From Psammoneis japonica (taxonomy: Eukaryota): DNA of 64,000 nucleotides. Positions 954 through 54,074 of the stretch are shown here, piece by piece. The stretch covers positions 124,001 to 188,000 of the forward strand of contig QPGO01000068.1 in assembly GCA_008632985.1 (NCBI GenBank), given 5' to 3'. Each line of letters starts with the position of its first letter. The first letter of the stretch is position 1. Under the pieces are notes generated by a model. It saw only the letters and a list, made by a program, of their open reading frames with translations, had not been told where the DNA came from and did no database searches. A program made the position numbers and the translations under genes.

Positions 954-1347
954 GGGTGGTCGGTTGCTACTTTTTTAAGCTCGAATTCGGCCGAACAGCT
1001 CGCATTTTGCATGATTTTTCCTGAATTTCACCGTGCTTCACCGTGGTGAAAACAACAAGCCATGAGTCTGTGACGGAGGTGGTCCGTCTACCAACTCTCA
1101 TTTATTTTATGTTTGTTATGTATCAAAGATTGTATATACATGAAAAGTTGGTAGACGGCAAACTACGTTTTTGAGAAACATCGATGATTGTCATCATCGT
1201 CGTGCTTCGGTCGCGGTGGTGATGGTTCTCGTTTTCGTGCGCGATCGGGTGTGACTATGAATAATTCTTGTATTCAAAAATAAACACTATAAAAAACCTT
1301 ATTCAAATGCAACGGTAATTTTAGGATAAACGCGGGGATGACCCCCC
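954..1347. mobile_element. TTAA-flanked MITE with GG...CC ends (Kolobok-like), unmutated copy
   Basis: TTAA at 950-953 and 1348-1351; short TIRs gggtggtc / gacccccc; homologous copy at 53655-54074. Confidence 0.7.
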
Positions 1348-1664
1348 TTAAGCATTTTTCTATTCCGGGTTTTACTATTTTATGAGTCATCAAACTCAAA
1401 ACTTCGCTCTCCGAAAAGCTTCGCAACTCGCAACTCAAAATACCGGTACCGGTACACAATAAATAATACACAACACACGACACACAACACACAGTACACA
1501 ACACAGAACAAACAGACGCTCATCTAGTTACCGTAGCAATCCTTCCTCCTCTCTCTTTTCTTTTGTTTCTCTCTCCCCTTCCCCCCCTTCTTTTGTTATT
1601 CCGCCAATAAGACAACAAAAAATTGCCCTCGTGTTCGCGATTTGATCTGGATCTGAACGCAACC

Positions 1665-2777
1665 ATGAGCATGCACGGAAAGCAAAGGAACAGCAGCACT
1701 GTTTATGCGGCGGTGCCCACGGCTGGGTCGAATCATGACGACCATGACAACGAATTGAAGCTGGCATCTCCATCTAGCCGCGGTTTTATGCAGTCTCGAA
1801 AGCTTGTTTTCTTGGTCCGGTTGTTGATTGTTGGATTCATTTCGAGTGGCCTTTACTATCAACGTGATTCTTGGTGGCCATCACGTTATCATGGACATCC
1901 AACAAAACTGCCCGGTGGTGGTCGTGATTGGTTGATCAACGTGGTGGATGGCACCATTGTGTGCAAGCATGAAACTGATTTAGTCCTCGGCGTGGATGCA
2001 ATGTCGCCGTTAATCTTGGTGGAACGAGGATCACCGAGTCAACTGCTATTTGGCGAGGTTCCTGCTCCAGGAGAGAGTGTCACGTTTAGCAATATCGTTG
2101 TGCCAAAGGAGATTTTGAAGGTTCCAGGATATAATGTTCGTGTGGCTGAACTGCCGAGTCAAGACGACGGTGATGATGAGCACGACGACAGCACGATGCC
2201 CGCCACCGTCAGCTACAAGGACAACTTTATCATTCTTGAGAATCAAAACATGGTACTAGATATTGCATTTTGGGACGTGAGAGATGGAAGTCACGTCAAT
2301 TTTGTGTCCGAGTGGCACCCAAAACGTACCTACACGTCGGGTGGAGGGCGCGATTGGGTATGGAATACAAAGGACGGCACCATTAGTCCCAAGTTGAATC
2401 CAAATCTAGTATTGGGGTCAGGCGGGCCTAGCATTGTATTAGTCGAGAGTAACGGCGACGACAAGCATAAACTCATCGTGGAACAAAAAACCATATCGAA
2501 GCTAGCTGCAGGCGAGACTGTTGACTTTGCTTTGGAGAATGGTGGTTATGTGACTCAACGGTTTGTCAAGGTTCGAGAGTATGATGGATGGAATGTTGTC
2601 GAGAGTGCTGTGGTTCGTGATGCAACCACAAATGCAAACGCAGTCCAGATTCAATACGATGGCAACTATGTCTTTGTCAATGGCAAGGATCTCGTACTGG
2701 ATGTGGCTTTTTGGAAAATGGTTCCTGGGAATGATGTTAACTTTGTTGGGGGGAATGATGAGGACGACCCGGTGTAG
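1665..2777 (+). CDS. Type II membrane protein with duplicated ricin-B/beta-trefoil-like repeats
   Basis: N-terminal hydrophobic helix; twice-repeated GGGRDWxxNxxDGTI...LVLG and VLDxAFW...VNFV motifs; first in-frame ATG at 1665. Confidence 0.7.
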   Translation: MSMHGKQRNSSTVYAAVPTAGSNHDDHDNELKLASPSSRGFMQSRKLVFLVRLLIVGFISSGLYYQRDSWWPSRYHGHPTKLPGGGRDWLINVVDGTIVCKHETDLVLGVDAMSPLILVERGSPSQLLFGEVPAPGESVTFSNIVVPKEILKVPGYNVRVAELPSQDDGDDEHDDSTMPATVSYKDNFIILENQNMVLDIAFWDVRDGSHVNFVSEWHPKRTYTSGGGRDWVWNTKDGTISPKLNPNLVLGSGGPSIVLVESNGDDKHKLIVEQKTISKLAAGETVDFALENGGYVTQRFVKVREYDGWNVVESAVVRDATTNANAVQIQYDGNYVFVNGKDLVLDVAFWKMVPGNDVNFVGGNDEDDPV

Positions 2778-2921
2778 AACCACGAGGATGAGGAGCCCAT
2801 GGTTTCAAGGGCCGTCATCTTTTTCCCATACTCGAGGTAGCATGTATCATTATCAGAGCAGCGCAGCAGAAAGTCGAGTGAAGTGTAGGTATTTTATTTT
2901 AACAATTAATTAATGTAGTCT

Positions 2922-9054: not shown

Positions 9055-9081
9055 TCAGAGTAAATTGTGCTACTATCACAT

Positions 9082-12146: not shown

Positions 12147-12152
12147 ATACGG

Positions 12153-17961: not shown

Positions 17962-18215
17962 CTACAGTTTTCCTTGCTGCAACGTCTTCTTTCGCGATTC
18001 GTTCCTCTTCAAAAGCCAGCGAGCTCTTGCGTCATCGAGGTAGCCAAAGAATTGCTGGTACCGTTGGAATTTTCCGTGTGGCCCCTCTTTGACGGTTCCG
18101 TAGTGATGGAGCCGATGGTCTCGAATGCCAACAAACCATCTTCGCCAAACATTAGGAGCTTTCGCCGCTGCATGACTCTCTGCAAGCATCCAAGTGACCA
18201 GCATGTTGTGCAGAG
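17962..18215 (-). pseudogene. Fatty acid hydroxylase/sterol desaturase family gene, 3' part
   Basis: ESH and HRLHH His boxes; reads in frame with the part beyond 28030 once the LTR composite and one TSD copy are removed (…RLARAL|HNMLVTW…). Confidence 0.8.
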
Positions 18216-18579
18216 TGCCGAGCATCACGGTCATCTATATTCATTCGTATGTTCATTCGTGGGTGTCAGCCTGGTGTCAAAAGTGTCAAAAGGATGTCAA
18301 CGATGACACTTTCTAGAAACCTCTTCTCCTTTCTCGATACATCTCGATGCCTCTCGAAAGATTGTTTCTTTACATTTCTGCGCGGTTTCTTAGCATTAAT
18401 TCTACGAGATTTCGGAGTAGCCGAATCTCTTTCATTTCTTCTCACAATGTTGGCAACAGTCAACTTTACAACGCTACTTTGTGCCATTACTTGGCGCCAC
18501 TTGGCATGGTAAATTTACTCCCAAACACCCATTCATCTCTCTTGAGACACATCCACCGATCACATTGTCCTGACCAGAC

Positions 18580-21500
18580 ATGTCAGCAGAAAACTGCCCA
18601 TTCGAACTCAAGCGTCCTGACTGCTCTGAGGAAGAGCGACGCAAAGACCAACTCGTGTCTTTTGAAAGCCCCATTGATCCTGACGATCCAGATGGGCTTA
18701 AAACTACGATCGAGGTGCGTAAGTTAGCTTCAACTGAACCGGAAGATGTTCTTACCTTCTGGTCAAACTTCGATGAACTTGTCAACGATCTCGGCGCGGC
18801 TGAAGGACAGCCACGTTTCCGGCTCGTGACCAGACTCATGACCGGAACACCAAAAGACGACTGGGAAATCGTCGTAAACGAACACGAAAACCGCGACCAA
18901 GTTACATTCGATGCTTGTCGTGAAGAATTTCCACTCCAATGCATGGACAGAGAAATTGCCCTTGATGCCAAGGAATGGCTTCAAAGCCTTGAGAAACCCA
19001 GGAACCAAACTGTCAAGTCATTTGTTAATGACATCCGTCGCTTTAATGAGTTGATTGATGTCAACCAAAGATGACGCCGAAAGAGTTCCGTCATTCACGG
19101 AAGCGGAATTGTCCGTAATCCTTCGAAAATGTGGACCAAGATCATGGGCCGAAACTCAGACTAAAGCCCGTCTTCGCAACTTAAACTTGAACGACCAAGC
19201 TCAATGCTACGAGACTCTCCGACGTATGGAACAACGTGGTGACAAAGGGTCTGCCGACAACAACAGACGCAATGACAATCGGAGTCGACGCAACAACGGT
19301 CGAAACACGCGTCGCGGCCAGAATGACGACCAAAATCGCGACACCAGGAACAGGAACCAAAACAATCGTGAACAAACATGTCCAATCCATGGCGTTGTAC
19401 ATCCGAACGGTCAAGAGTGCAATGTCATCCGTCGTGAACGTGAAAATTATGAGCGGAACCGCGCAAATCGGAATGCGCCGAATCAACAAAACAACTCTCG
19501 AAACGAGCCGACACACCGCTGTCCCACACGGAGCCGCACACGGAACGTCGAAAACAATGATGTGGACTCCAAAGCTAGTCGCTCCGCTTCTAACGATGTC
19601 GACAGCGTCGCGTCAGATGATGTCAACGATGTTTTTGAAGACGTCACGTCTCTTCTGGATGATTCCATTGAATCCGAAATAGAAGACAATCTTACCACGG
19701 AAGCGCGTGTCCAGATGATTGATGCTCATTCTGGAATGCACAAGTTCCGTGTTGCTTTGCTCGATGCCGGTGCAAATCGCAATTTTGTGAAGCGCTCAGC
19801 CCTTCGCGGGATTCCTCACAAAATCCACAAATGTGACGTTCCCGTCAAAGGCCGTTACAGTGCCGTTAATCTGCACGAGATTGCGACGCTGACATTGAAG
19901 TTCCCAGACTTCGCATCGTCCAAGAAGGTTTCCGTCGATGCTCACGTGGAAGACAAAGCCACAGGAAAACACGACATTGTCATCGGAAGAAAAACCGCCA
20001 CAGAAATGGGACTCGTTTTTGATTTTCGACATCAGACAATCACGTGGGACGATGTCACCCCATCCATGTGATCCAAGGGCTCTTTCGACCAAGTCGAAGT
20101 TAATGCAATTCATCCGGCGATGCTGAATTACCCAAGTTCTTCCAGAATGCCGTCAACCGTCAGGTTCGAGGTGTGACGAGCAACATGCACGACAAGCACA
20201 ATTGTCGCGACATGGTTCTATGCTGCAAACACCTTGATGACGATCAACAGCACCAACTCATCGAACTCTTCGGACGACACCCGCAATTGTTCGATGGTGC
20301 ACTTGGAGCTGCACCCGGCAAACCCGTCCATTTGACCCTGAAACCAGGATCGCGTCCATGCTGTGCGAAAGCTTGCACTGTTCCGCAAGCGTCACATCCC
20401 ATGGCTCGCAAAGAAGTGGATGAATTGGAAAAAATCGATGTTGTTGCGCGCAAACTTCACTCTCCTTGGGGCGCATCCTGTCTTTTCCGATCGAAGAAAA
20501 GCGGTGGCATCCGTTTCTTATCCGATTTACGGAAACTCAACGAGTGTCTCGAACGGCATCCACATCCACTGCCCATTGTCGACGACGTCGTATGGAAAAT
20601 GAACGGCTTTACCCATGCAACATGTTTGGACCTCAACCGAGGCTGCTGTCACTTCGTGCTTGACGACGAGTCAAAAAAACTCTGCGGCATCATCCTGCCG
20701 TGGGGCAAGCATTGCCACAACCGCCTGCCGCAAGGAATCAAACCGGCAAGCGATGTTTTTCAAGCTCACATGACAGACATTTTTCATGATGTGGAAGATG
20801 TCATAGTCTGCATCGACAACATCATCCTCTTGCCAAGAACAACTTCAACCATCACTGTCAACGACTCGAACTCGTCTTGCAACGGCTCCTCGTGAACAAT
20901 CTTCACGCACATGTCGAAGAATCCCATCTCGCCACCAAGACCGTCGACTGCTTGGGCTGTGCCATGACTGCAAAAGGCACTCAGCCTCAGAAAAAGAAAA
21001 TCCTGCCCTTGCTTCGCTTCGCTAGCCCTCAAAACCGTCGACAATTACGTGGTTTCATCGGGTTCGTGAATTGTTGCAAGAAATTGTGGTGCCGACGCAG
21101 CCACACTCTTACGCCCTTAACTGCGCTGTCATCAGACAAAGTCAAATTCAAGTGGACTGACGTCCACACGGAAGCTTTCAATCAGATGAAAAAAATTGTG
21201 GCGCGCGAAATCCTCCTCCGATTCCCCGACTTCTCTCAACCTTTCAAGATCTATCCGGATGCGAGTGATTGTCAACTTGGTGCAGTGATCACTCAAGATT
21301 TTGACGATGGCGAATGGCCAATTGCATTCTGCAGCCGAAAATTGTCTCAAGCGCAACGAAACTACACGACAATGGAAAAAGAGCTGCTGTCGCTCGTGGA
21401 AACGACCGAAAATTTCAAAAGCATCCTTTTTGGTCATCGATGCCACCCATTTGCCGATCACAAAAATCTCACATTTGACAAATTCAAGTCAGAACGCGTC

Positions 21501-28029: not shown

Positions 28030-28698
28030 CAGAGCCCTTGCCAAGCGTGACTTTACAACTCCCCACGGAGTGAATCTCTGCACGAGAACATTCACAAGCA
28101 CCTGCAGTGACCCATCAATGATTGAGTGCCGAAGAGCATCCCTCGCCTCTCGCCTCCAACGAGCCAGCATGAGAATGGTGTCTTGCGTGCAATGGCCTCA
28201 GAACAGGGAGTTCATGCATGGCCCAATGAATAAAAAAGAAAATAGCATCGTACAGGACAATGCCACTCATGACTTCGGCAGCAAGATGCAATGATCCGTC
28301 GACATCTTGCGGAATGCCATCAGGGAGTGCACCATTGGCTGGAGGTGGGACAACACATTTCAGAATGAAAATTCCCACCCAACATGCCGAAAGTGAGTTA
28401 TAAACAGGTGACCATCCAATTCCAATGGTTGACACAAAGCTCTTGTCGACGGAAACACCGGCTTTTCGCTCGTAGAACCAATGCAAATTGACAAAAACAC
28501 CGAAGGAAGCTGCAGCAACAAGTGGGTCCATCCACCACGCTCTGAAAACTCCATTCTCCATGTCGAAAGACGGCATTTGTGTCGCACGTATCCATTCCTG
28601 CATCATGGCGTTAATTTTCCCAATACGCCATGCCAAGGATTAGTCTATGGGCAAAGGAGCTTTCCAACCATCTAAACTGAGCCTGCCCGAGCCGTCAT
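28030..28698 (-). pseudogene. Fatty acid hydroxylase/sterol desaturase family gene, 5' part
   Basis: YDAIFFFIHWAMH and HARHH boxes; a 7-bp tandem duplication (ctcgcct, 28142-28155) frameshifts it; start uncertain. Confidence 0.8.
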
Positions 28699-36400: not shown

Positions 36401-36896
36401 TCATCTTGCGCGTCTGTGTTAAAAGCTTCATGTGAAGGATGACTCAATGGAGTGTCTTTTACATCCGGACTGGCCTCGGAAGGCAAGCTGGGTGCCAGTT
36501 GAAGGCGACTAAGAGCGTCAGTGACTGGGTCATGGGCACCCTTGACATGGCGTAATTCGGGGCCACACTCTTCGCATGTCAACCGCCAGCGCATGGCGTG
36601 CTTGGTGTTGAATGCTTTGTGCGTAAGATTTTTGTGATCAGTGCACATGATCATGCGATGACCAAGGAGAGTCGTTCGAAATTCTTTCAACGTCTCCACA
36701 ATGGCGAGTGATTCTCTCTCCATTGTTGCACAATTTAATTGCGCACTGTTGAGCTTTCTGCCATGAAAGGCAACAGGTTCATTGTCTTGGGATGTGACTG
36801 CTCCCAATTGACATTTAGAGGCATCGGCATGCATCTCAAAGGGTTTGTTAAAATTGGGATGTGACAATAAAACATCATCCGATGTCACCCGTTTAA

Positions 36897-37429
36897 TGCA
36901 CTCGCACAACGAGCTGATGGATGGCAAGACGATTTGACATTCTGAATTTTTTTTGTGCTGGAAACTTCGTGCGCGCTACACGAGCATCGCTAAAAATCGG
37001 CAACATGACGGCGGTGCGTTGTCGTAATGATGGCGACGACATTGACGTGTCCTGGAGTCTTTGAGCATTACAGACATTTAGATTGTTAAATTTGCGAACA
37101 CACAAAGTCATGAAATGGACCAGGAGCAGCCTTCGTTCAATCGCAAAACGTCGCACCAATGCTGAGCTCTGTTTTTTGACTGTCATTTGATGCATTCAAT
37201 CATCGAACGATTGTGAGCTCGTCCGGGCAGCTTTCTTTGCGCATTGATGTTCTTGAGAGCATCATTGACAATGCCATTGAGTGCACACTTTAAAGTCGTT
37301 CTGTAAGACAGTCAGAAAAATGTCATCGTCATCATCGGCGTCGACGGCAATTTGTCGCGCAAATCGCAAAAAAAGCACCACAGTCGTCTGCCCGACATTG
37401 CGCCACTGTGCGCTGGTTGCGCGAATGCC
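36897..37429. mobile_element. TTAA-targeted MITE inserted in RT/RNase H
   Basis: Absent from the outer copy; flanked by TTAA (36893-36896) and TTGA (37430-37433); imperfect 18-bp TIRs tgcactcgcacaacgagc / gctggttgcgcgaatgcc. Confidence 0.75.
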
Positions 37430-40296
37430 TTGACGGTTTCGAACGCCTCGTCTTCAATGGACGTCCACTCCCACTTGACAGTCTCGCTTACGAGTCGTGC
37501 CAGCGGAGCCAAGACTTCAGAACGTCCAATCCACGTGTCGCGGCAGCAGCTCACCATGCCAATGAATGAACGCAGGTCGCGTTTGTTGGTTGGGGTCGCG
37601 ATTCGCTCAATGGCGTCGACTTCATCAGGTGTTGGTCGTGTTCCGTCTCCATTGACCAGATGACCCAAGCATTCTAATTGGGTTTGACAGAAATGAGATT
37701 CAGTTGCGTCAACTTTTAGCCCTGCTTTCTGGACCCTCAATGAAACTTCTTCAAGTTTGTTGAGGTGATCTTCATGGGTGCCTTTCGTCACGATGAGAAG
37801 GTCATCTAAGTGCGTTTGAACGAACGATGGATCTTCAAACAAGCCTGACATGCGTTCTTGGAAAATGTCTGGCGAATTGCATGATCCCATGGGCAATGCC
37901 TGCATCTCACACTTGCCCCACGGGAAGATGAGCGTGCAGAGCTTCTCACCATCAGTGTCCAATCGTACATGATAATAGCCCATGTTTAAATGCAGCGATG
38001 TAGCCCACATAAAGCCTTCGAGCTTAAGTAGCACATCTTGGATATGAGGAATCGCATAAGGCAATCGCTTGATCCGTTTATCCAGCTCTCTGAAATCATT
38101 AATAAAGCGTACCGTTAAATCTTTCTTCGGTATGATAAATGATGGAGCTGCCCATTGGGATCGGTTAACGCGTTTGAGAACACCGATACGTACTAGGCGT
38201 TCTACTTCTTTACGTAGCGTAGCTTCGTACGCACGAGGTACTTTATACGGACGAGCGTGGTATGGTTCTACACCCTCCTTGAGTTGGATATGGTAGGGTT
38301 CTCCCTTCCATTCTCCTAATGTCCCATCAAATAAGGACTCATGGCGTCTCAATAGTGCCAAAAGGTCGTTTTGTTGAACTATAGAAAGTCCTATTGTCCC
38401 TCGCGTTATGTCCTCGAGGCAGGCCGGCGCGTACTTAGCGTCTAAAATACGCGAAATCCGGTCGGTTTCCGAAGATAAGGCTTCTGGATCTTGAAGATAG
38501 AAGGAGGTTTCCACCGTAGCATCTACGTGCCTCATTGGTACTTCTCCATTGACTAATGGCCACTCTATCATCTGTTTAGAGAAGACAATATCAATGCCTT
38601 GCGTCTCCAGAATGTCACGTCCAATAATCATATCGTACTTGCCCAACTTTCCGTTGTGTACGTGGACGGTATGTTTAAGTTCTGCAGTTTCGCATAATTC
38701 TGGTAACCAAAATTTAACGGTACAGTCGTTAGACGTACTGAACGAGCCTGCTACCGTAGTCCAGTTTGTCTCAGCCGTTGAATGGCTTCGCAGACGTTTA
38801 CAGTATCGACTATCGAGAAGAGTACTGCTGGCGCCACTATCTAGTAGTGCCTTAATAGTTTGAGTCTTGCCCTTGCAATGTTTAGTATTCATAGCTATAA
38901 ACAAGATTGGAGTAAGATGAGTCTTTTTCACTCGTTTACGGGATTGGCCTACAACACGTGTACGATGGTAATTTAGTTGTTCATTTATACATTCATCAAA
39001 TGTATTAAAACTACCTGTGTCGTGTCGGCCCCCTTCTCAGGCGTCCGAGTCTTCGGAATCACTTAAGTTGAGGTCGCGGAAGTGATTGAGCTCCTCCTCG
39101 CGTGCCTTACGCTTTTTCTGGGCGTTGGCAAAGAACTCCTCGACCTTCGATCCGATGAGAGCATTAACATCTTCCTCATTCTGAGGTTTTGCACTAGGCT
39201 TGCTGCCTCCATCATTGGAATGTCCAGTCTTGACACGTTTCACGTGGTGCTTGAGCTGACGGCAGTCCTCCGCATGGTGTCCACAGCCAGTCCCGTGCAG
39301 CACACACGACTTCTGGGTGTTCCGTTGGGTCGTGATCAACGACTCAGGATTGTCCGTTCTACGTCCCCGCTTGCGTGGAACCTTAGCATGTTGGTCCTGG
39401 TTACCTTCGGCAAGCTCGACCTGCTCGATGCGCTCGCAGAACTGCACAAATTCGGCGACAGCATGCGCCAACGGGTCAAAATTCTGCAACGTCATGAACT
39501 TCTGCCATGCGTTTGGCACACCGTGCTCGAACACATCGCACAGTTCGTCATCAGGTGATGGTGCCAGTGTTTCTCCATCCTCCATCATGGGTGGAAACTG
39601 AGAGACACAGCCGTTAATTTCAACAGCCCTCGCCACGCAGTCACGAGTGGAAACCTCCGCGGGCTTGTGTGTGAAGCGCCGCAGATGACGCTTCTGCAAT
39701 GGTGCCGCCCCATGTGGGAAGATACTTTCCTTTAGCTTTGCGACGCATGCTGCACACGTGGCGTTGGTTTGGGATGCCTGCTTGTCAGCGGCATTGTCAA
39801 ATGACGTCAGAGCATCGCTCTGCAGCAGGTCACGCACAAGGGCAAATTTTGCTGGCCCGGTCATGATGTTTTGTCCTTCGTGCACGCGATCCACGTTGCG
39901 CAGAAAGATTGGGAGTGTCTCGCATGTAGCCGCAGAAAGGTGCGGAATGCCCATCTCGTGTGTTGGACCATCTGGATCAGTGGGGTTGTTGCGCAGCTTG
40001 AACGTCTGGCACTCGCCCTGCTGCAGCTCTTTCTTCTCCGGCCGTGCGAACGGAATCGGCGGCTCAACCCGCTTCTTCATGGTCGTTTTAAGATTTGTCG
40101 GTCCTGCCAACATTTCGTAGTTTCGTTTCTGTAGATTTTGTCACCTCGCACAACATGCGGGAGTGACATTGCTGTGCCCTGTGTGTGTGCCAGGCGCTGA
40201 AAAAGAAGATGTGTCACGACTTTGTCGTTGTGAAAATTGTGAGCTAGTTCAGAGCAGAGAAAATGGGATCGTGCAAATGGGGAATCTTGCCAAATC

Positions 40297-40724
40297 CAGC
40301 GTTGTAAAATCGTCAACTTTCTCCCAACAATCACGGATTGCAACCATCGATTGCGTGCGGCTTCGCAGCAATCGAAAGATCGCAATGCACGCGCGCTTGC
40401 CACGTGTGACAATCGATTGCAATCGCGATCGCGATTGGCCACCGCGCGGAATTCGTGCGCCCCACGCAGGGGCGCCCTCTGCGCAAGAACGCATTTTTCG
40501 TGAATGTGTGCCACGTTTCGGTCAATTTTTAGTCCCGTGTGCGATGAAAATCCCGATTCACGACTGAATTTTAGACACGAATCGATCGCGATCGATCGCG
40601 AACACGATTGCGATCTTTGTGACCAGCGCCAGACAAACAATCAGCAGATTGCAATCGTTTCAATCGCGATCCGCAATCGAGTTGCAAACAAGATTGCAAT
40701 CGAGTTAGCGATTTTATGACGCTG
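40297..40724. mobile_element. hAT-type MITE inserted in an LTR
   Basis: 8-bp TSD gccaaatc; TIRs cagcgttgtaaaatcg / cgattttatgacgctg; CpG-rich subterminal cgat repeats. Confidence 0.85.
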
Positions 40725-43700
40725 GCCAAATCCCTGTTCGTTCGCATTTGGATCGCGTCAAATCGATCGTGCGTTCGCATTGTGGATCGTGCGAATCAAG
40801 CCATCACGTGCCATGCACGAGTGATGTCATCATGTGGAATCACGTTGCCATCGTGGGCCAGACGACGGGCTGGTGTGCTTCACACGGATGCTCTCTTGGC
40901 ATCCTTCTGGAATTGCCTGAGACCTGGAGCCATGCCCTCCTGTGGTCATGCTTCCCAGGCGCGTGTCAACAATGCTGCGTTGCCACGCACAAGAGGCTTG
41001 TGCACGGTCTCGCTGTGTTGTCCATTGGTGAGGCACACTGCAGCTGCTGCGGAGAGGATGCCACTCCATGGGTCATCTTCGTCCAGTTCCATGTCCTGCA
41101 CTGAAAAGGAACGCACCATGTCACCAAGTGTCTGGCGCACACGTTCCACTGTGGCATTCGCCTGTGGATTCCGCTTGCTTGTGGGTTTCTTCAAAATCCC
41201 ACAGTCATTTTTAATCATCTGGCTAAATTCTGCCACAAATTCTGTCCCACGGTCACAAACCACCTGGGTTGGCCACGGACATCTGCATGGCCACGTTTGT
41301 TCTACGACGTTTGCCACGACGTCTGTGCGTTTCGCAGACACTTCTTCAATCTTGAACCACCCGGTTGCTGGGTCAATCATTGTGACTGCCCACAATTGCA
41401 AAGTGTCCTTTCCGTGTCTTTGAATTTTATGTGGCCCTGTCGTGTCCATGCATGGAGTCTCCCATGGAATTATCTCGGTGACCTTTTCTGGCAGCTTCCC
41501 ACAACGCTGCGTTCGGCATTTGTTTCTGACATCGATCGCACTCAACGCACGTAGAATGCACCGCAGACCTCATGCCAGGCCAACAGAAGTGCTGGGCAAT
41601 GGACATTTCCGCACGTGTCTCACCTGGATGACACAGTGTCTCGTGGTGCCATGCAGTTGGCGGAACCTGCAATGACTGTGGTGCTGCGATTTTGTCCTTA
41701 TGACAGATTGACTGTCATGATGACCCTCCCCCACGACATGCGCGAATGGAGCAGTTGGACGAGTCCTCAGCTCGTGAGAGCAGGCGCTTGTCCTTTTGTT
41801 GTTCTTTTTGAATGCGCTTGAAGCTAACAGGCAGAGATGCATCGTCTTGCGCATCTGCATTAAAAGCTTCATGCAAAGGACGACTCGATGGAGTGTCTTT
41901 TGCATCGGATTGGCCTCGGAAGGCAAGCTGGGTGCCAGCCGAAGGCGACCAAGAGCATCAGCGACTGGGTTGTGGGTGCCCTTGACATGGCGTAATTCGG
42001 GACCGCATTCTTCGCACATCAACCGCCAGTGCATGATGCGCTCGGCATTGAGTGCTTTGCATGTAAGATTTTCATGACCAGCACATGTGAGCACACGATG
42101 ACCAAGGAGAATTGTTCGAAATTCTTTCAACGTCTCCACAATGGCGGGTGATTCTCTCTCCGTTGTTGCACAATTTAATTGCGCACTGTCAAGCTTTCTG
42201 CTGTAAAAGGCGATGGGTTTATTGTCTTGGGACACAACTGCTCCCAATTGACATTTAGAGGCATCGGTGTGTGTCTCAAAGGGTTTGTTTAAATCAGGAT
42301 GTGACAACAAAACATCATCCGATGTTGCCCATTTGACGGTTTCGAACGCCTCGTCTTCAACGGACATCCACTCCCACTTGACAGTCTCGCTTGTGAGTCG
42401 TGTCAGCGGAGCCAAGACTTCAGAATGTCTGATCCACGCATCACGGCAGTGGTTCACCATGCCAATGAATGACCGCAGGTTGCGTTCATTGGTTGGGGTC
42501 ACGATTCGCTTGATGGCGTCGAATTTATCAGGCATTGGTCACATTCCGTCTCTGTTGACCAGATGACCCAAGCACTCTAATTGGGTTTGACAGAAGTGAG
42601 ATTTAGTTGCGTCAACTTTTAGTCCTGCTTTCTGGACCCTCAACAAAACTTCTTCAAGTTTGTTGAGGTGATCTTCGTGGGTGCCTTTCGTCACGACGAG
42701 AAGGTCATCCAAGCACGTTCGAACGAACGACAGATCTTCAAACAAGCCCGACATGCGCCCTTGGAAAATGTCTGGCAAATTGCACAACCCCATGGGCAAC
42801 ACCTGCATCTCACACTTGCCCCACGGGAAGATGAGCGTGCAGAGCTTCTTGCTGTCAGCATGATCGGATGTGACAACAGCCCATGTTTAAATCCAGCGAT
42901 GTGGCCCACATGAAGCCTTCAAGCTTGAGCAGCACATCTTGGGTGTGAGGAATCGGAGAGGCAATCGCTTGATCTGTTTATTCAGCTCTCTCAAATCATC
43001 AACAAAGCGCACCGTTAAGTCTTTCTTCGGCATGACAAATGATGGAGCTGCCCATTGGGATTGGTCAACGCGTTTGAGAACACCGACACGTGCCAGGCGT
43101 TCTACTTCTTTGTGCAGTGTAGCTTCGTGCGCACGAGGTGCTTTACACGGACGAGCGTGGTGTGGTTCTGCACCCTCCTTGAGTTGGATGTGGCAGGGTT
43201 CTCCCTTCCATTCTCCCAATGTCCCATCAAACAAGGACTCGTGGCATTTCAACAGTGCCAAAAGGTCATTTTGTTGAACTGTAGAAAGTCCCACTGTCCC
43301 TCGTGTTATGTCCTCGAGGCAGGCCGGCGCGCACTTGGCGTCCAAAATGCGTGAAATCCAGTCGGTTTCCGAACACAAGGCTTCTGAATCTTGAAGATAG
43401 AAGGAGGTTTCTACCACAGCATCTGCGTGCCTCATTGGCACTTCTCCATTGACCAATGGCCACTCTGTCATCTGTTTGGAGAAGACAACATCAATGCCTT
43501 GTGTCTCCAGAATGTCACGTCCAACAATCACATCGCACTTGCCCAACTTTCCGTTGTGCACGTGGACGGCATGTTTAAGTTCTCCAGTTTCGGATGATTC
43601 TGGCAACCGACATTTAACGGTGCAGTCGTTAGACGCACTGAACGAGCCTGCTGCCGTAGTCCAGTTTGTCTCAGCCGTTGAACGGCTTCGCAGACGCTTG

Positions 43701-44608
43701 CAGCATCGACTGTCGAGCAGAGCACTGCACTGCTGGCGCCACCATCTGGCAGTGCCTCAATGGTTTGAGTCTTGCCCTTGCCATGTTCAGTGTTCACAGC
43801 TGCAAACAAGATTGGAGCAAGATGAGTCTTTTTAACTCGTTTGCGGGATTGGCCTGCAACACGTGTACGATGGTAATTCAGTTGTTCATTGACACATTCA
43901 CCCAATGCATTAAAACTGCCTGTGTCGTGTCGGCCCCCTTCTCCGGTGTCCGAATCTTCGGAATCACTTGAGTTGAGGTCGCGGAAGTGATTGAGCTCCT
44001 CCTCGCGTGCCTTGCGCTTTTTCTGAGCGTTGGCAAAGAACTCCTCGACCTTCGATCCGATGAGAGCATCAATGTCTTCCTCATTCCGAGGTTTTGCATT
44101 GGGCTTGCTGCCTCTGTTGTTGGAATGTCCAGTCTTGACATGTTTCACGTGGTGCTTGAGCTGACGGCAATCCTCCGCATGATGTCCACAGTTAGTCCCG
44201 TGCAGCATGCACGACTTCTGGGTGTTCCATTGGGTCGTGATCAACGACTCAGGATTGTCCGTTGTACGTCCCCGCTTGTGTGGAATCTTAGCATGTTGGT
44301 CCAGGTTACCTTCGGCAAGCTCGACCTGCTCGATGCGCTCGCAGAACTGTGCAAATTCGGCGATGGCATGCGCCAACGGGTCAAAATTCTGTAACGTCAT
44401 GAACTTCTGCCATGCATTCGGCACACCGCACTCGAACATGTCGCACAGTTGTCATCAGGTGATGGTGCCGGTGCTTCTCCATCCTCCGTCACGGGTGGAA
44501 ACTGAGAGATGTGGCCGTTAATTTCAACAGCCCTCGCGACACAGTCACGAGCAGAAACCTCTGCGGGCTTGCGCATGAAGCGCCTCAGATGACGCTTCTG
44601 CAACAGCA

Positions 44609-45127
44609 TGAGGCTACGACCAGCACAATGTGCAACATAGAACATTCAGAACCACACATGTTTCATTTGAATGCATGTCAAATGTCTGAATGATCGGCAC
44701 ATAAAATGACTGCACATGACTCCTGGTGTAGAATTTGTGCCAGTCTACGTGCTTAAAGCTCTGTGAACTGAGGTGCAACAAAAATGACTTACATTGGGTG
44801 AGTTCAAATGTCGGAGCCGCCAAAATCGACCGAGACGCCGGCCACGTCTTTTGACAAAACAAAGCACTTGAATGTGTTGTGTGAAGCAGTCAGAGTTGAA
44901 AAAGCAATGTCAAAATTTGAGAACTGATTTGAGTGGCAAACATTGTCAAATTCTTCTAATTGTTTTTGACAGTGTCGGTTTTTGAGTGCAAATTGCACGG
45001 GTTGCATCTGCAAAAACACCCCAATCATTTGCCAAAAACCATCATCGTTAAATGTCGATGTGCAAAACTTGCAATGCCGGTGTTCGGGACGTTTTTTACA
45101 GTTCACATTGTGCCAGTCGTAACTCCA
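44609..45127. mobile_element. TA-targeted (Tc1/mariner-type) MITE inserted in gag
   Basis: TIRs tgaggctacgaccagcacaatgtg / cacattgtgccagtcgtaactcca; flanks CA and TG reconstruct to a TA TSD; a related end occurs at ~52825-52920. Confidence 0.75.
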
Positions 45128-48100
45128 TGCTGCCCCATGTGGGAAGATGCTTTCCTTTAGCTTCCCGATGCATGCTGTGTACGTGGCGTTGGTTTGGGAT
45201 GCCTGCTTGTCAGCGGCATTGTTGAATGACGTCAGAGCATCGCCCTGCAGCAGGTCATGCATGAGGGCAAATTTCGCTGGCCTGGTCGTCATGTTTTGTC
45301 CTTCGTGCACGCGATCCACGTTGCGTAGAAAGATCAGGAGTGTCTCACATGCAGCCGTGGAAAGGTGCGGGATGCCCATCTCGTGCGTTGGACTGTCCGG
45401 ATCAGCGGGGTTGTTGCGCAGTTTAAATGTCTGGCACTCACCCTGCTGCAGCTCTTTCTTCTCCGGCCATGCGAACGGAATCGGCAGCTCAATCCGCTTC
45501 TTCATGGTCGTTTTGAGATTTGTCAGTCCTGCCAACATTTCGTAGTTTCGTTTCTGCAGATTTCGTTGCCTCGCACAACATGCGGGAGCAATGTCACTGT
45601 GCCCCATGTGTGTGCCAGGCGCTGAAAAAGAAGATGTGTTGCGACTTTGTCGTTGTGAAAATTGTGAGCTGGTTTAGAGTGGAGAAAGTGGGATCGTGCG
45701 AATGGGGAATCTTGCCAAATCCCCATTCGTTCGCATTTGGATCGCATCAAATCGATCGTGTGTTCGCATTGTGGATCGTGCGAATCAAGCCATCACGTGC
45801 TTTGCACGAGTGATGTCATCGTGTGGAATCACGCTGCCATCGTGGGCCAGACGATGGGCTGGTGTGCTTCACACGGATGCTCTCTTGGCATCCTTCTGGA
45901 ATTGCCTGAGACCCAGAGCCACGCCCTCCTGTGGTCGTGCTTCCCAGGCACCTGTTAACAACACTGCGTTGCCACGCACAAGAGGCTCATGCACGGTCTC
46001 TCGCCGTGTTGTCCAGCAGCGAGGCATGCTGCACATGGGTTTTGTTCTGTGAGTGCTGCTTTTTTTGCACTCCCCTTCTCTCCACAATCTGCAGCTTGCT
46101 CTTTCTGCATTTTTGGCACTCGGCTTTTGCTCTTGTGTGGACCACCTTTTTCACAATGTTCCTCCACACATGATGCTTCAGCGATGCAATGGCCATTTGT
46201 TTGCTGCTGTTCTCTTGGGCTGTTCTCAAAAAAGATTGTTGCAACACCTCATTTTTCATCACCTTCTCCATGCAGAAGTCAAGTGGTTGCATTTCATGAG
46301 CTCGGGGGGGGGGGGGGGGGCAGTGAGGAGCCAACACTTTGTGCTCTTCCCTGCAATCTTTGCTCAGATTGAAGCAATTTTCAACACAGTTTCATTGCAG
46401 CAGACTGCTCTCATCTCCTCATGTGATTTTCACAAGGCAGGTCATGTTGCACTTGTTGGATGCCAAGTGTGTGGAATGTGCCACACTGCACTTGTTGCCC
46501 CAGTTGCAAATGCAAGCCTTTTTTGCCTTCCTTTTTGTGCCAGTTGCAGCCTTGGTGCCAGGTGCCATTGCACCGCAAATCCACGAATGAAACAAAGTGG
46601 CTCTGATGGTGCTTGCATCCACTCCATTGTCCCATTGATGGCAGCATTGATGTTTGTTGTTCAAGTGTTGTCGCACATTGTGGCATTCAGAAAAATAAAA
46701 AAAATTGAAAAGCTGCTCTGCACCACAAAATTTGGCGTGCAAAAACTCAAAGCCCCTGCAGCCCATGTCTGGTGGGGGCAGCCGGCAACTGATCTGACAC
46801 TGATTGAACAAGGATGAACTGTGTTGAAGCTGATGGTGGGCCCATGCAGGCCTGCCCATCCTGCTGTTCAATTGTGTGTCCATGACAAGACCAAAAGCAC
46901 ACCCGCCTGACAACAATTGCCGCACATTGCTGGACTCCACTTGTTTTTGTTCCCCTCCCCTGAGCCCTTTCAGTCATTCCTTCCTGCAAAATTTCCCTCA
47001 TTTCCCAGGTTTCTCCCAAAAAGGCAAGGTTCCCCTTGTCACACTGGCCATTTTGGGGAATCCTCAAATGGGTGAAACCAAACCAAGCAAAGATGAAGGT
47101 GGGACTTTCTGCCAACTTCTGTGTGCCACATGTGTTTGATGCCAAATCCATGCCAGGGACACATGGAAGTTTGTTTCACTTTCCAACAAAGCCGTCCATG
47201 GTCCTGCACTTTTGTGCATTGACCCGCTGGAGTTTGTGTTGCAATTTTTCAGCAGAATGACTGTTGAGGACAAACAAATGATTGTTTGTGTGTGTGATTG
47301 TTTGGGTCAGTTACAATGTTGCCATTTGACATGAGCATCACATCAGTTGGCAAGCAAGTCTGAATTTTGGTGGTTTGTTTCCATTTTTGAACTGCAAGCA
47401 TTTTTTCCCCACCTTGTCACAGACACAAAATTTTGTCAGGAGGAGCAGACAAATGGAGGCAGTTGGGAAAATCTTGTCTGTGACAGAGACAGACAGAGAC
47501 AAACCAAAAGGATTGATCAAGTGACATCATTGCCTCCACTGTTGCATCATGTAAAATGAGCACTTTCTCTTCTTTCTCCAATGGCGCTGCAGCACACATG
47601 AAGCCATGAAAGACTCAGAACAAGAGCAGCGAATGTGCAGCCACCAAAAATTTCAAAAATGCACTCCCTTTGATGACCAACCTTCTTCACGTCACAATTG
47701 TGCATGGAGCCAGGGCTCCATTCCCAAGGGACTTCAGACACATTGCTGCACAATGTCATTTTGCTGGAAACAAAGACTTGCAGAGAGACAGCAGCTTGTT
47801 GGAATGACCCTGATTTTGGTCCTGTGGATGTTCAGACCAGGAGTGTCAAAGAGCTGAGCATGGAAAATGCCATTTTGTGTGTCTGCCACAGGCAATGTGT
47901 CAGAGCAAAGATTTTCAAGGGCCAGGGCTGTCCTGCTTGATCTTTGCACCATTTTCTTCCTCAGCGCAAATGAGTCAGAAGCAAAACAGTGGAGTGTTTG
48001 TTGTGCAGTGCAACATGGCACAAGGAACCCTGCACTGCAAAATGGGAAAGCAACTTGGACTTGTCTCATGAAGAAATGTCAACAATTGCTTGCCAAGCAA

Positions 48101-51100
48101 GTGCAGCCACCCTCCCTCCCACACATTTGTCGGACAAGTTTCAGACAACAGAAGAGCAAGGACCAGTTGGTTGTCCATGCAAATGGCACATTTGGACAAA
48201 ACATGCTGTCAACATGACACTCCCATCCAAAATGCCACCACTGTTTTTCCAATGACCCCCAACTGATTTTCCATTGAGAGCACAGTGTCAAACATCACTG
48301 GGCACAGGGGTGCATGAAATGCACAAGGGGAAATTGATTGGAAGTGGCACTCCAAGACTTCTGAATGCATGAGAAACAAGTTTTTGTTGCAGTCAGGGGT
48401 CACAAATCAATTGCCAGCTTTTTTCCATGCAAAACAAGCTGTTTTGTGCTGTCTCATAGAATCAGCACCAGGTTCTGCTGCAGCCAGAAATGGCAGCATG
48501 CATGCTGCCATGCCATTTGTGCTGACAACCAACTGGACTCTGGCAGTTGCTGAAAGAACAGCTCCCATTTGCCATTGCTCAGATCACATGTGGGAGACCA
48601 TCATTGATGACAATGGGTGCGGAGTGGAGTTGCTTGTTTGCAGCAGAAGCAGCTGAGGATGCTGCCATGGACTGAGCTTGTTCAGCAATTGCAAAGGTGC
48701 ATTTGTTGCAATGTCTGAGTTGTCTCCAACAATGCTGTTTGTCCCTGACATGTTGTTGGGGTCCACAGTTTCTCCATTCACGGCACTGTCATTGTTGTCA
48801 TCATCAGAGCTGTCAAGGCAGGGCTCTGAAGGAGACAAGTCTTTTAAGGTGATGTCATTGAGGTCTGACCTCAGGCTGTCTGAGAGTTGCAATGACCAAT
48901 GTTTGATGGAGGTCAGGGGGGTGCCACACCACAGTTGAGCTGGTGCAATCAAAAAGGATCAAACACCACAATTGGATGGGATGATCATCCATTCATCTTC
49001 ACCCTTCCCAGTCATTGCACTCCTCAATTCTTTGAGAGCTGCAAGCTGCTCATGTTTTGAGAACATGGTGGAGGAGCTGGGCAGACTGTGTCTTTCATCA
49101 CAAGCTGTTCCTGCAGGTTGAAATTTGGGATGTCATGGAATGCAGCCATGACATTTAGATTCCATGTGGATGCATCAGCAGGCAGCAGAGGGATGAGCCA
49201 AACAAAGGCAGCATGTGGCTTGGCAAGGACCGGTGCTTGGCTTTGCCATCATGTCCATGTGAGAAAAACTGCTTTGTCACATGGATTGAGTTGTTCCAAA
49301 ACTTGTCAAAGGCACAGTGTCTGGAGGCTTTCTGAACTTTGATGGGTGCATTCTTGTTGCCACCAAGTTTGACAGTTTAGAACTTGGCATCTTTGGGAGC
49401 AATTTTCTCTGAGAAGGAGCCTGTGTGGCAAAAGTGCTGCTGCACCCCATGTCATTTGATGCCACACAAAAGCAGGAGGTTCCAGCAGAGTGCCGCTGGA
49501 GCAGTGCTGAGGGATCTGAACAGTGATGGTTGTGACTTCTGCAACTGGGTGCCAGATGGAAATTGTGGCAAGAGCCTTCATTTTCTGCTGAGAGTTCAGC
49601 CCATTCATGAACATTTTTGGTCCTTGGAATGGCCCCAGAACAAGTCTCATGTGCATCTGATGCTGTCTCAGCATGGAAGGCATTGGTGTTGTCTTTGATG
49701 TTGTGTGCCAAAGCCCAGCTGACAGCGCCATTGTGTTGATCATGCCACCATGTAAATTGTGCATTTGAGTGCCTTGCTCATCTTTTTATGGGATGATCTT
49801 TTTGCTTGTCTCCACACATGAACATGTTTGGTCATTGGTTTCTGTTGTCACACAATGCATGTGTGTGGTTTGTGCATGTCTGGAATGTGCCCATTGCAAA
49901 TCTTGTGCACCCCAAATGTGCACCAAAAATCAAGCAGTGCTGCCGCTGCAGAGCAAGCTCTCCCACTCACAAACACCGCACACTTGCTGATGACTGCCTG
50001 AAACTTCTTGTGGGGGCAAGAGTGCTGTGACAGGCAAGTGAGACAGTGGTTGACAAAGCAGAGTTTTTAGAACATTAATTTTTGCTGCTTGTGGGCCCCC
50101 TCATGTCAGGATTTTTGACTCGCAGCATTTTGATCCCTCCTCTTTTTCTCTTCCTCTCAGGCTGTGCAGCCCAGTGCCTTGAGCACCAAACTTGGTGATG
50201 AGTTTGTTGAAGGCAGTTGCAAAGATTGTTGATGACAACAATTGTGAAACTGTTTCTAAGTTGGCACACTTGGCTGAGAAACCTTTGATGATGTGAGTTG
50301 CATGTGTTTGCTTTGTGCTGTGGATGCACGGCTGCTGTGCCCCCTGATGAAGTGCTCCTCTGCACCAGCAGCCCACCTGACACCTTGTTGCCTGGCATGT
50401 CTTTGGAAAAAGCAATCAGCAAATCAGCCTTGGTTGAAAAAACTTGATGGTGAGCACTTGGCATGCATGCCCAACCCCAGCTGCAGTGTGCATGTTGAAG
50501 AAGAAAACATGCTGTCCCCGCCCTGGTCACATTGTGCAACAGAGCCAAAGGGCTGCTGGCCAGCACATGGGTGAAAATGGAGGAAACATTTGATGCCAAA
50601 GAAAAAGAAAAGAAAACAAAGCCAAAGCAGCAGCTGACCTTGAAGAAAAGAGGACAAAGCTGGAAAAAAGGGTGCAAGCCAATGAAAAAGAAAACAGACT
50701 GGTGGGCCAAGAACATCACAGTGATTGGTTTGCTTCTGCAGAGAGGAGCTTCTTTTCCCATGACAACCACAGCAGAAATCAGCTGTGAAATGTTCATGTT
50801 GTCTTGCCAGTCATGTGGTGTGTCCCAACTGGCTGTGGGGGAGCTCTTGTCAACTGGCACACCACTGCTTGGTGGCAGTCTCATGGCTTTTGTGACACAG
50901 TGGACACCATGGTGAGCTGTGACCTGCTGCCATCTGCCACCCACAACAGCGGCACCAGCTCTTTTTCCTGAGTGGTGGCACCCCCATCTTTTGAAACAAC
51001 TTCCAATGCCAGTTTTGGGTTTCAATGGGTGTGACTCTGGCTGATGACTGAGTTTGCTTGGCAAGATGAAGCTTTGGTGCACTCAAAGCACTGCTCAACA

Positions 51101-53001
51101 GTCCTGATGCTTTGCTCCACCCATGGAGGGATCACAATGAAGTGCATGGTGTCCTCTGTGCTGTCAGATTTTTGCCCAAAAAGCAGAGTGGGTGCAACAA
51201 GCTGAGTTTTGTGTGCTGTTGCCACATTTCTCACTTGGCTTTGCCATCACCCAGTCATGCCAACTTCTCCTTCATTCCCCCATGATGGACAGAAATGAAA
51301 GAGCTGTGGGGGTGGGTGGAGAAAACCATGCTTGCAGTTGAAAACACTGGGCATGTTGCAGACAATGTTGCTGTTTTTTGGCCAGAAATGCTTTGAGGAG
51401 TCCCCATGTCTCCCAGGAGTGAAAGTGTGTGATGGCTCTGCCACTTCATGGCCTGCATGCTTGACGCTCACAGACCATGAAGTTTCCAAGGCAGAGTGCT
51501 CATGATGTGTTGTTGGGCTGTCACAACTGGTTTGTGATGAGGTTTGAACCCAGAAATGAGGCGTCAATGAATGCATCACTGTGCTTGGCAGTTGAAGCAG
51601 AGCAACCCATGTCCTGCTCTTGACCCAGCTGCCTGAGCTCCAACAGATGGCTTTGGGCTTCTTGAAACACAAGAACATCCTCATGGCAATGGCTCACAAC
51701 ACATTGGGGTCAAGACAGTCCCATCAACAGCGGGTGTTCTTTGCAGGCTGTTTTGACAGCATCTTTGGAAGAGCCTCACAGAAACTTCCAAAAAAGTTGT
51801 TTGAATTTTGATGTTGTCAAATGTGCCAGAGTGAAAAGAGAAGAAAACTTTTGAACTTGGAAGCACAAAATCCAGATGTGGAGAGAAGCACTCTCAGAAA
51901 GGGGCCCACAACAAATCTGAACAAAAGACATGAAGAGTGATGAGGGCAGAAAGGTGGAGCTCCAGCTCTTCATGATCCTTGGACATTGCTCCTTTCATTG
52001 CCACAAGTGTTGCAAGACTCCATTCCCAAATGGTGCTGGGTCATCGAGAACACCCTCCGCACACAATGCACAAAGGAAAAATGGTGCGAGGGCACATGAG
52101 AGGAACACAGGTCCCACACAGATGGTGGAGCAGATGGGCTCAGGCCCAGCATGTTCTGCATGCTTTGCACCTTCACATCTCATGTGGCCATGGAGTGCAA
52201 GAACCAAAACTTGTGAGTGCAGCCACTGCCCTTGGTCTGTCTGGTCCAAGAAAGAAAAGCTTTGCAAAATTTGCAAGTCAGGCAGTGATTTTTCATCATG
52301 ACAAAAACTTCTTCCTTTGCAGGGCACAGCTTCTTGGCAGACATTGTTTCCCAAAGAAACAGGGGCCACAAAAGTTGAGCTTCTTCCCTCCCTGTCCTCC
52401 TCGAAGCCAAGAGGAGATTGAAGTTGTGCAGTCCAGTGTCATTTTCATCGGCGCTGCCTCCGCTGCTGCACTCTGAGCAAGAAAGCAAGTGAGAGCATCC
52501 TTGGAGCAAGGGTGACAAAAGCCCTCATTGAGCTCCTCTCCCAGAAGAACAAGTGCCTCATGGCAAAAAACACCTTCCAACCTCTGCTGGCCCAAGCAGC
52601 CAGCATGGCATCTTGCTCCTCATCTTGGAAATCTTGAAAACTGCCTTTGTTGCTCATGCACACCCCACCAACTGGTGCATTCTTGCCCATCAACAGGGAC
52701 ACATGAATCTTTGTCTTTGACCAGGAAGCCAGGAGCAAGAGATGAAATGAGGAAAAGCACAAGCACTGAGTTGCCATCTCAAACAGATGACATGGATGTG
52801 AGAGTCCACTGTGGAGCTGCCAGCATGAGACTGGCACAATCTGACCTGCCAAAAATGTCCCAAACACTGGCATGGCAATTTGTGTCATTGGTCATTTGAT
52901 GAGAGTGGTTTTTCACAAACAAACAGAGCATTTTTGCAGAAGTGATCCACACAATTCTTTCTTAAAATTTGACACTCATTGACACAATCAGAAGCATTGT
53001 A

Positions 53002-53393
53002 GGACGCGTTCCAGCCCCAGGTGGGACTCCGTGTGACATTGGGCCCGTAGAATTCTACGTGCGAGCTCCGTAGTACGAGAATTTAATTAATGGATATATT
53101 TATCTTTAACATCAAATAAACGGCCAAGTTTGTGGTACAATTATGCCTCTTACCACTCGACGTTTTTGCAAATGCACCTGCCCTACGCGATTCTTAAGAC
53201 ATTATAGAATCGCGCTGTAACAAAAAATGTCAAAAGTTGTTGGACGGATCGCTCAATAAGTGTACCGTAAAATGACACAAAATATCAAAAAAATCACGTA
53301 GAAATCTACGTGCGCGACATACGACGTGATTCAAAAAACTATCGATGTCACAGTTCAGCAGTGCGAGGTCCCACCTAGACCTGGAACGCGTCG
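53002..53393. mobile_element. Young TA-flanked MITE, unmutated
   Basis: TIRs ggacgcgttccagccccaggtgggac / gtcccacctagacctggaacgcgtcg; TA on both sides; TA- and CpG-rich interior. Confidence 0.8.
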
Positions 53394-53654
53394 TAGATGC
53401 TTTCCATGCAAATTGTTGCTCAAATTTTGATGTTGCTTTGTCCTCAACTCCAGCTCCTTCTTGAACCATGTGCATGTTAGAGTGTGTTTTGTGAACAGAC
53501 ATGGCCAGCATTTTGTTTGATTTTGCAGCACTCTGAAATTTTCAACTCCCAATTTGACATCAGGCATTTTTGTCACACCCAGTTTTGTTGACCCACCACA
53601 AGTTTTTGGGCTGGTGCAAACCACACACAAAAAGTCATGTGCAGTCATTTTCAA

Positions 53655-54074
53655 GGGTGGTTGGTTGCTGCTTTTGAAGCTTGAATTTGGCAAAAGAGCT
53701 CATGTTTTTTGCACAAATTTTCCTGAATTTCACCGTGCTTTGCTGCATCAAAGACAGCAAGCCACAAGTCTGGTGTGACAGAGGTGGCCCATCTGTCAAC
53801 TCTCATTTGTTTTGTGTTTCTCATGCATCGAAGCTCTCATGTGCATGAAAAGTTTGAAGATGGCAAGCTGCATTTTTGAGATGTGTCAATGATTGACATC
53901 ATTGTCATGCTTGTTTGATTGGCATGTGGCATGGTGCCCGATGTTCTCATTTTCATGCATGATTGATGATCGGGTGTGAACAACAAGAACAACTTTTGTG
54001 TTCAAAAACAAACACTGTAAAAAACCTTGTTCAATTGCCATGGAAACTTCAGGATGAATGAGGGGATGATCCCC
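53655..54074. mobile_element. Hypermutated copy of the 954-1347 MITE
   Basis: Colinear homology end to end; flanks TCAA (53651-53654) and TCAA (54075-54078) in place of TTAA. Confidence 0.8.

Follow-up and report, generated by a model that had tools for sequence, protein, structure and literature searches.

Why do two copies of one small mobile element in the same stretch of diatom DNA differ so starkly in their content of the dinucleotide TpA, and on which molecule did the difference arise? The question is raised by a window of 64,000 nucleotides from Psammoneis japonica (GenBank assembly GCA_008632985.1, contig QPGO01000068.1, positions 124,001 to 188,000 of the forward strand), within which all coordinates below are counted. 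The window contains only two copies of a miniature inverted-repeat transposable element (MITE), here called MITE-1, both on the plus strand. Copy A (954-1347) has a body of 394 bases with 22 TA (rho 0.68) and 25 CG (rho 1.44), and copy B (53655-54074) has 1 TA (rho 0.03) and 4 CG (rho 0.22), with a rho of 1.87 for TG and CA combined. Our analysis indicates that copy B is probably an old copy of a class II element that was mutated on the chromosome by two processes acting jointly, the conversion of TpA and the decay of CpG.

The two copies are homologous (BLASTN E-value 1e-62, 72.8% identity over 423 columns). Their alignment over 430 element columns consists of 304 matches, 97 mismatches (70 transitions and 27 transversions), and 29 gap columns, and the transitions are concentrated in TpA and in CpG (Fisher p = 6e-6 each). 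They also have a direction. TA in A is matched by TG or CA in B 19 times and the reverse does not occur (binomial p = 3.8e-6), while CG in A is matched by TG or CA in B 21 times, with 2 cases of the reverse (binomial p = 6.6e-5). Counted together with its TTAA flanks, copy A has 24 TA and 25 CG against 1 and 4 in copy B. The 24 TA read TG (11) or CA (9) in B or have undergone a transversion (3), and one is kept; the alignment itself gives 8 CA, and the ninth comes from the misaligned right target-site duplication (TSD), which was read by eye and brings the total to 20 of 24 TA that became TG or CA. The fate of the 25 CG is similar, with 10 TG, 10 CA, 2 kept, and 3 other outcomes. The single TA of copy B compares with 34.9 expected (Poisson p = 2.5e-14), and none of 20,000 shuffles reached a count of one or less. 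At 7 further places a TG in one copy faces a CA in the other. The change extends into the flanks, which, as the initial annotation had noticed, are TTAA on both sides of copy A (950-953 and 1348-1351) and TCAA on both sides of copy B (53651-53654 and 54075-54078); we read the latter as converted TTAA.

Two copies alone give no direction, and the polarity could in principle be the reverse, with the TG/CA form ancestral and the TA- and CG-rich copy derived from it by a process like repeat-induced point mutation (RIP), which makes TpA from CpA. The family pile-up settles the direction. Contigs from three public runs of one sample were aligned to positions 850 to 1450 at a likeness of at least 80%. 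Run X1 yielded 522 pieces, 78 of them at least 99% alike, 90 at 95 to 99%, 199 at 90 to 95%, and 155 below 90%, and the 72 variable places in these pieces comprise 22 A>G, 22 T>C, 9 C>T, 9 G>A, and 10 transversions. Among 40 of the 79 variant rows, 22 are T>C or A>G changes that fall within TpA of copy A, and its CpG have none. Six TA sites (1089/90, 1117/18, 1121/22, 1137/38, 1288/89, and 1300/01) have both CA and TG variants, in many contigs, and because single steps link the three states only via TA, TA is the ancestral state of the family. Word depth also bears on this point. Depth is by far the highest, at 1153, for a piece that matches A exactly over 1227-1351, compared with 32 to 69 for the listed diverged pieces with 17 to 33 differences, which suggests that the TA-rich sequence is the form present many times. 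A TG/CA-rich family consensus with a derived TA-rich copy, the outcome that the initial annotation had named as contrary to its proposal, was not found; A>G and T>C changes at TpA predominate. RIP would furthermore not create CpG, and the segment 46000-52800, with 12 TA against 460 expected, 41 CG against 391 expected, and a rho of 1.83 for TG and CA combined, has too few TA (12 in 6.8 kb) for the original state of coding or transposon DNA. A reversed polarity is hence scarcely credible. Neither the right flank of copy A (1375-1450), which has no contig cover, nor its low-complexity left flank (871-933), which has high depth, was used as evidence.

If TA is the starting point, was it removed by a targeted process or simply by time? 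TpA and CpG might be the fastest-mutating dinucleotides everywhere in the genome, with B old, A young, and no targeting at all. The pair is indeed confounded by age. With 27 transversions and 29 gap columns between them, B must be much older than A, and the two copies on their own do not tell targeted mutation from mere age; A and B are deeply diverged old relatives and no clean before-and-after pair. Copy A, and likewise an unconverted MITE nested close to copy B (Y, described below), could just be young, and the borders of conversion coincide with the borders of insertions, as age alone would also give. Against this account stands the composition of the window. Copy B lies in a converted block (45600-58300) without a recognizable protein domain, in which, outside Y, the rho of TA is 0.03 to 0.06 and that of CG 0.10 to 0.28. 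The gene zones (approximately 1.6-17 kb, 29-32 kb, and 58.8-64 kb, as delimited by Pfam scans and dinucleotide profiles) have a TA rho of approximately 0.45 to 0.6, and the 13 spacers between their open reading frames (ORFs), presumably old as well, keep TA at a rho of 0.40 to 0.90 (pooled, 392 observed against 671 expected, rho 0.58). The borders of converted DNA are abrupt, at approximately 32430 and at 58020-58336, and directly adjoin spacers that keep TA.

The tandem Ty3/gypsy copies at 33.9-46 kb, recognized by the same scans and profiles, provide a comparison with far less divergence. Between the patch 37950-39150 of copy 1 and its counterpart 42850-44050 in copy 2, the latter has lost 75 of 94 TA with only 19 differences outside TA and CG in 894 matched columns, a disproportion that age alone does not explain. 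The patch itself is an unconverted island. Gypsy copy 1 is otherwise TA-poor, but TA is kept (85 in four 250-base bins) along approximately 1.1 kb that span the protease and the beginning of the reverse transcriptase. The process would then work in tracts, unless this part was restored from an intact copy by gene conversion. Doublets in which TG in one tandem copy faces CA in the other number 76 (35000-45650), 3 inside the patch and 73 outside, and the latter imply that the same ancestral dinucleotides were converted independently after the copies had separated. Considering spacers, borders, and gypsy copies together, we regard age without targeting as rather improbable.

On which molecule did the conversion take place? 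TA>TG and TA>CA follow each other in random order, both in copy B (11 and 9; runs z = 0.05) and in the gypsy patch (32 and 44; z = 0.9). Each site was hence hit on either strand independently, which excludes the editing of one RNA strand; the random strand outcomes also argue against a single processive pass along one DNA strand. RNA editing or reverse transcription (RT) error would have required a retroelement to carry copy B and its flanks along through an RNA stage. Ty3/gypsy elements are abundant in the window according to Pfam scans, and copy B lies in decayed repeat DNA, so that such a passage is conceivable; a single RNA strand would nevertheless give one polarity, and TG and CA alternate randomly within 420 bases. 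In addition, none of the 65 ORFs of at least 90 amino acids in 45.6-58.4 kb matched a Pfam family above the cut-off (one chance-level match reached 16.6 bits against a cut-off of 26), and long direct repeats framing copy B were not found. The region thus gives no sign that B rode through retroelement RNA. ADARs are, to our knowledge, confined to animals. We consider the RNA route very unlikely, and the earlier proposal that the change happens on chromosomal DNA, and not by ADAR-type RNA editing or RT error, is supported by the random strand order, by the lack of retroelement remains around copy B, and by the conversion of the DNA into which copy B is inserted.

This host of copy B is itself a MITE, X', a converted copy of a second family. 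Its first two parts (52821-52998 and 53398-53650, both on the plus strand) have 1 TA and no CG each, and homology to the family member X stops exactly at the left flank of B. A third part to the right of B (54079-54177, plus strand) is probable but tentative, as only 54077-54096 aligns to X. Between the first two parts sits MITE Y (52999-53397, plus strand), 399 bases long, with 28-nucleotide terminal inverted repeats (TIRs; 86%) and with TA at both ends, as in Tc1/mariner-type elements. Y is unconverted, with 30 TA (rho 0.96) and 29 CG (rho 1.53), and the composition changes in an abrupt step at its borders with X'. The younger insertion in the block is thus untouched. This arrangement bears on the suggestion in the initial annotation that TpA loss might depend on a gene-proximal versus a nested position. 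The window does not bear this out: Y is nested and unconverted, copy A lies only 40 bases from a TA-free stretch (1-908), and conversion is therefore not decided by position alone. A simpler reading is that it depends on when an element arrived relative to the process.

Could the converted sequence be an artefact of assembly or of base calling at modified bases? The converted MITE variants are separate read-derived contigs of ordinary depth (32 to 69), although the runs may be the assembly's own data; moreover, each site has one fixed outcome, and the borders of conversion are the borders of elements. An artefact of this kind appears nearly negligible as an explanation.

The DNA-level reading gains from the nature of MITE-1, which is most likely a TTAA-specific class II (cut-and-paste) MITE of approximately 400 bases, abundant and non-coding. 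The 522 contig pieces of run X1 attest to its many copies. The family's loose ends begin before 949/950 on the left and start at 1349-1352 on the right, next to the two TTAA of copy A, and contig depth over the family falls from 6781 to 9 past position 1353. Internal deletion derivatives are present among the run contigs. The ends form 12-nucleotide inverted arms including TTAA (92% complementary), of which the TIR proper takes up 8 bases with 7 of 8 matching. A tRNA search of MITE-1 gave no hit, Rfam gave none at the gathering score and three sub-threshold hairpin matches, and there is no A-tail. We rejected an origin from a short interspersed nuclear element or a tRNA, given the lack of a tRNA and of more than sub-threshold Rfam hairpins. 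A Pfam scan found no transposase domain among the window's ORFs that it covered, and no search for a partner was made beyond the window; a metagenome scan with the 21-base conserved core of MITE-1 gave 0 matches. The element resembles piggyBac-type MITEs in its TTAA on both sides, short TIRs, length of approximately 400 bases, non-coding character, high copy number, and deletion derivatives. It differs from them in a TIR of only 8 bases, in the lack of a visible transposase partner, and in its termini, which read GGG...CCC. Copy A also has a central hairpin with a perfect 13-bp stem (1084-1096/1146-1158). In the corresponding hairpin of copy B (53789-53863, for 1084-1158 in A) the CpGs of the arms have become CA and TG, and that pair is still complementary; other stem positions are disrupted, leaving 77% complementarity.

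Sequence context gives a further clue to the agent. At informative sites, that is, sites where only one strand reads TAY (Y, pyrimidine), a pyrimidine followed the edited A 39 times out of 48 (p = 1.5e-5), with the MITE contributing 9 of 12 and the gypsy patch 30 of 36; the family shows the same at 10 of 11 informative sites. Conversely, the TA that survive in converted blocks lie in a YTAR context (R, purine) in 23 of 35 cases compared with 162 of 970 in TA-normal DNA (p = 4e-10), and in TTAA in 14 of 35 compared with 42 of 970. The two dinucleotides were not lost together. TA loss with CpG intact is found at 18-28 kb, at 34-46 kb, and in the stretch 1-908; CpG retention there, together with the lack of CpG changes among the 40 variant rows of the family considered, places the loss of TA ahead of the loss of CpG. 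We read this order as the work of two processes, a fast one specific for TpA and a slow decay of CpG of the methylcytosine type.

The fast process might act on DNA and yet involve no deaminase. Polymerase eta prefers WA sites (W, A or T), and error-prone repair synthesis of this kind (WA>WG), or alternatively a base modification at TpA, could be the agent. TA loss with CpG intact, as in the gypsy copies and in 1-908, would fit patch repair that restores CpG and miscopies TA. This explanation accords less well with the outcomes, which are nearly all transitions (at the TA of the MITE 20 against 3 transversions, in the gypsy patch 75 against 2). Nor is there a visible effect on ApA, the gypsy patch having only 8 other transitions, and the preference for a 3' pyrimidine resembles the contexts of tRNA adenosine deaminases. 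Outcomes that consist almost only of transitions fit adenine deamination better than polymerase error, and we therefore consider repair synthesis or base modification unlikely, though less so than age alone.

Several further points weigh against the view of copy B as a MITE converted in place. Copy A is not pristine, with CA or TG at 996/7, 1003/4, 1063/4, and 1179/80, where much or most of the family differs. The initial annotation had called the family unmutated at 954-1347 and converted at 53655-54074; the coordinates, the strings, and the conversion stand, and "unmutated" is an approximation in view of these four sites. Of the 38 A>G or T>C differences between the two copies, 19 lie outside the TpA of copy A. 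Contig depths are not equal to copy numbers, the variant rows considered are 40 of 79, and the assembly may have been built from these same runs. The assignment to class II rests on the 8-base TIR (7 of 8), the TTAA flanks, and the family-wide ends, and a TIR of 8 bases that starts with GGG...CCC is unlike the canonical piggyBac ends, which read CCC...GGG. That the TCAA flanks of copy B were once TTAA is likely from the TTAA flanks of the family. TTAA is at the same time the most refractory context, so that the conversion of both TSDs of B is the least expected event and marks saturation. As TTAA survives conversion, a TTAA-seeking element could also have entered converted DNA, and the order of insertion and conversion is thus not fixed. 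Finally, the empty site that preceded the insertion of B was sought in the paralogue X, which reads differently; X' lacks 56 bases of X at the insertion point, and a TTAA was not recovered.

How might these observations fit together? We propose that copy A is a young, nearly source-like copy of MITE-1 and that copy B is an old copy, which would have inserted into MITE X' in the midst of 12 kb of decayed mobile DNA. A fast, TpA-specific A:T>G:C conversion, acting on either strand at each site independently and preferring 5'-TAY, and a slower CpG>TpG/CpA decay, as from the deamination of 5-methylcytosine, would together have removed 23 of 24 TA and 23 of 25 CG from copy B, including the TA of both TSDs. 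The agent of the fast conversion could be an enzyme that deaminates adenine to inosine, which is read as G, at silenced or foreign DNA, and the process would be episodic or slow enough that recent insertions have escaped it. CpG decay by deamination of 5-methylcytosine is well known from methylated transposons, and transposon methylation is reported for diatoms too. Such decay accounts for the CG>TG/CA part of what distinguishes copy B and the block; it cannot account for the loss of TA, which is also seen where CpG is intact.

Other known systems match the pattern in part. RIP, in Neurospora and other Pezizomycotina, turns CpA into TpA, is triggered by duplication, and leaves an AT-rich product. 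The process described here has in common with it that the chromosomal DNA of mobile elements is hypermutated by transitions, in a dinucleotide context and on both strands, which disables transposons. Its chemistry and direction are opposite, with TpA destroyed, the reverse of the C>T change at CpA that defines RIP. In contrast to the duplication trigger of RIP, MITE-1, represented by hundreds of contig pieces, still has 78 of 522 pieces that are at least 99% alike and unconverted. ADAR and APOBEC enzymes work on RNA or single-stranded cDNA, and the changes that they leave are coordinated by strand. Clusters of deaminase-made transitions in mobile elements are a shared trait, but MITE-1 is not known to have an RNA stage, the flanking DNA has changed as well, and the strands alternate randomly.

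The closest parallel comes from Bigelowiella natans, where integrated DNA of giant viruses and virophages undergoes TpA hypermutation, as described in a preprint (Mettrop et al., bioRxiv, 10.64898/2026.01.13.699255). In mutation accumulation lines, A>G or T>C made up 210 of 211 changes in a giant-virus region and 20 of 20 in a virophage region; every one of these lay on TpA, at approximately 1,000 times the background rate, and in only some of the lines. The authors consider the process regulated and propose an adenosine deaminase, in line with the agent that we suggest above, and they found that TpA-poor coding sequences are enriched in transposon domains. In both systems A>G and T>C changes on TpA give TpG or CpA depending on the strand, and in both they are limited to certain DNA, there integrated foreign DNA and here blocks of mobile DNA (the stretch 1-908 excepted). 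There are differences as well. B. natans is a rhizarian and the present host belongs to another lineage, for which the ABC-F protein encoded in the window gives a lead, as it lies closest to a protein cluster made up mostly of Bacillariophyta; the changes there arose in culture lines and are here deduced from the comparison of copies; and TpA depletion is mild there (rho 0.45 in the region from a nucleocytoplasmic large DNA virus) and near complete here (0.03). The targets here include cut-and-paste MITEs with their flanks, the preference for a 3' pyrimidine can be measured, and the old blocks are depleted of CpG as well. The signature is the same, in another lineage, on transposons including MITEs, and nearly complete. 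The preprint does not contain the word "diatom", and among the papers listed by full-text literature searches none dealt with TpA loss in diatom transposons.

More speculatively, diatoms might possess a programmed defence in which a DNA-acting adenine deaminase attacks 5'-TAY on either strand of integrated mobile DNA, in elements of any class and copy number and in episodes, so that later arrivals escape, and which would share its origin with the B. natans process as an old defence of the SAR group (stramenopiles, alveolates, and Rhizaria); taken as a whole, this scenario is possible but somewhat doubtful. If chromosomal DNA is subject to a natural, targeted A:T>G:C mutator, this would mirror fungal RIP in its chemistry. 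It would also be the second instance of a process that is so far known from a single 2026 preprint (10.64898/2026.01.13.699255). The value of the MITE pair is that it removes explanations by RNA editing and RT that stay open for retrotransposons. An enzyme, if one is behind the conversion, would edit adenine in DNA naturally and in a defined context, TAY, which is of relevance to the biology of genome defence, to base-editing tools, and to the annotation of algal genomes with respect to tyrosine-free pseudo-ORFs and long false ORFs without TAA or TAG.

TA loss in the window is confined to mobile DNA with the single exception of the stretch 1-908 beside copy A. This stretch has 1 TA against 37.5 expected and 66 CG against 74.1 expected, and it may be a converted gene or the converted ORF of a mobile element. 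Its tyrosine-free ORF (2-664, minus strand) encodes 221 amino acids with 6 cysteines and 5 histidines; a Pfam scan (as 5-799, minus strand) assigned it to no family, and a homologue search among proteins of 121 to 387 residues gave none.

The remaining features are other mobile elements. MITE X (44604-45132, minus strand), the paralogue of the host of copy B, has a 29-nucleotide TIR and is partly converted (rho of TA 0.26 and of CG 0.77). Gypsy copy 2 carries the insertion, and copy 1 lacks it at the corresponding place (approximately 39700). Between X and X', TA>TG/CA occurs 6 times against 1 reverse case and CG>TG/CA 13 times against 0, alongside 51 other transitions and 29 transversions; in view of these many other changes and of the partial conversion of X itself, we discarded the two as a second control pair. 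A short converted element with Y-like inverted ends lies at 54296-54505 (plus strand; 1 TA and 2 CG), its kinship to Y being tentative and based on the inverted ends. Further along the converted block, a tandem repeat at 55490-56057 has a period of approximately 283 to 285 bases and copies that are 93 to 99% alike. Two inverted Ty3/gypsy copies occupy 18.2-28 kb, with a TA rho of 0.14 to 0.3 and a CG rho of approximately 1.2; at 18213-28032 they form a near-perfect inverted repeat of 9.8 kb, the arms of which are 94 to 96% complementary and have intact CpG.

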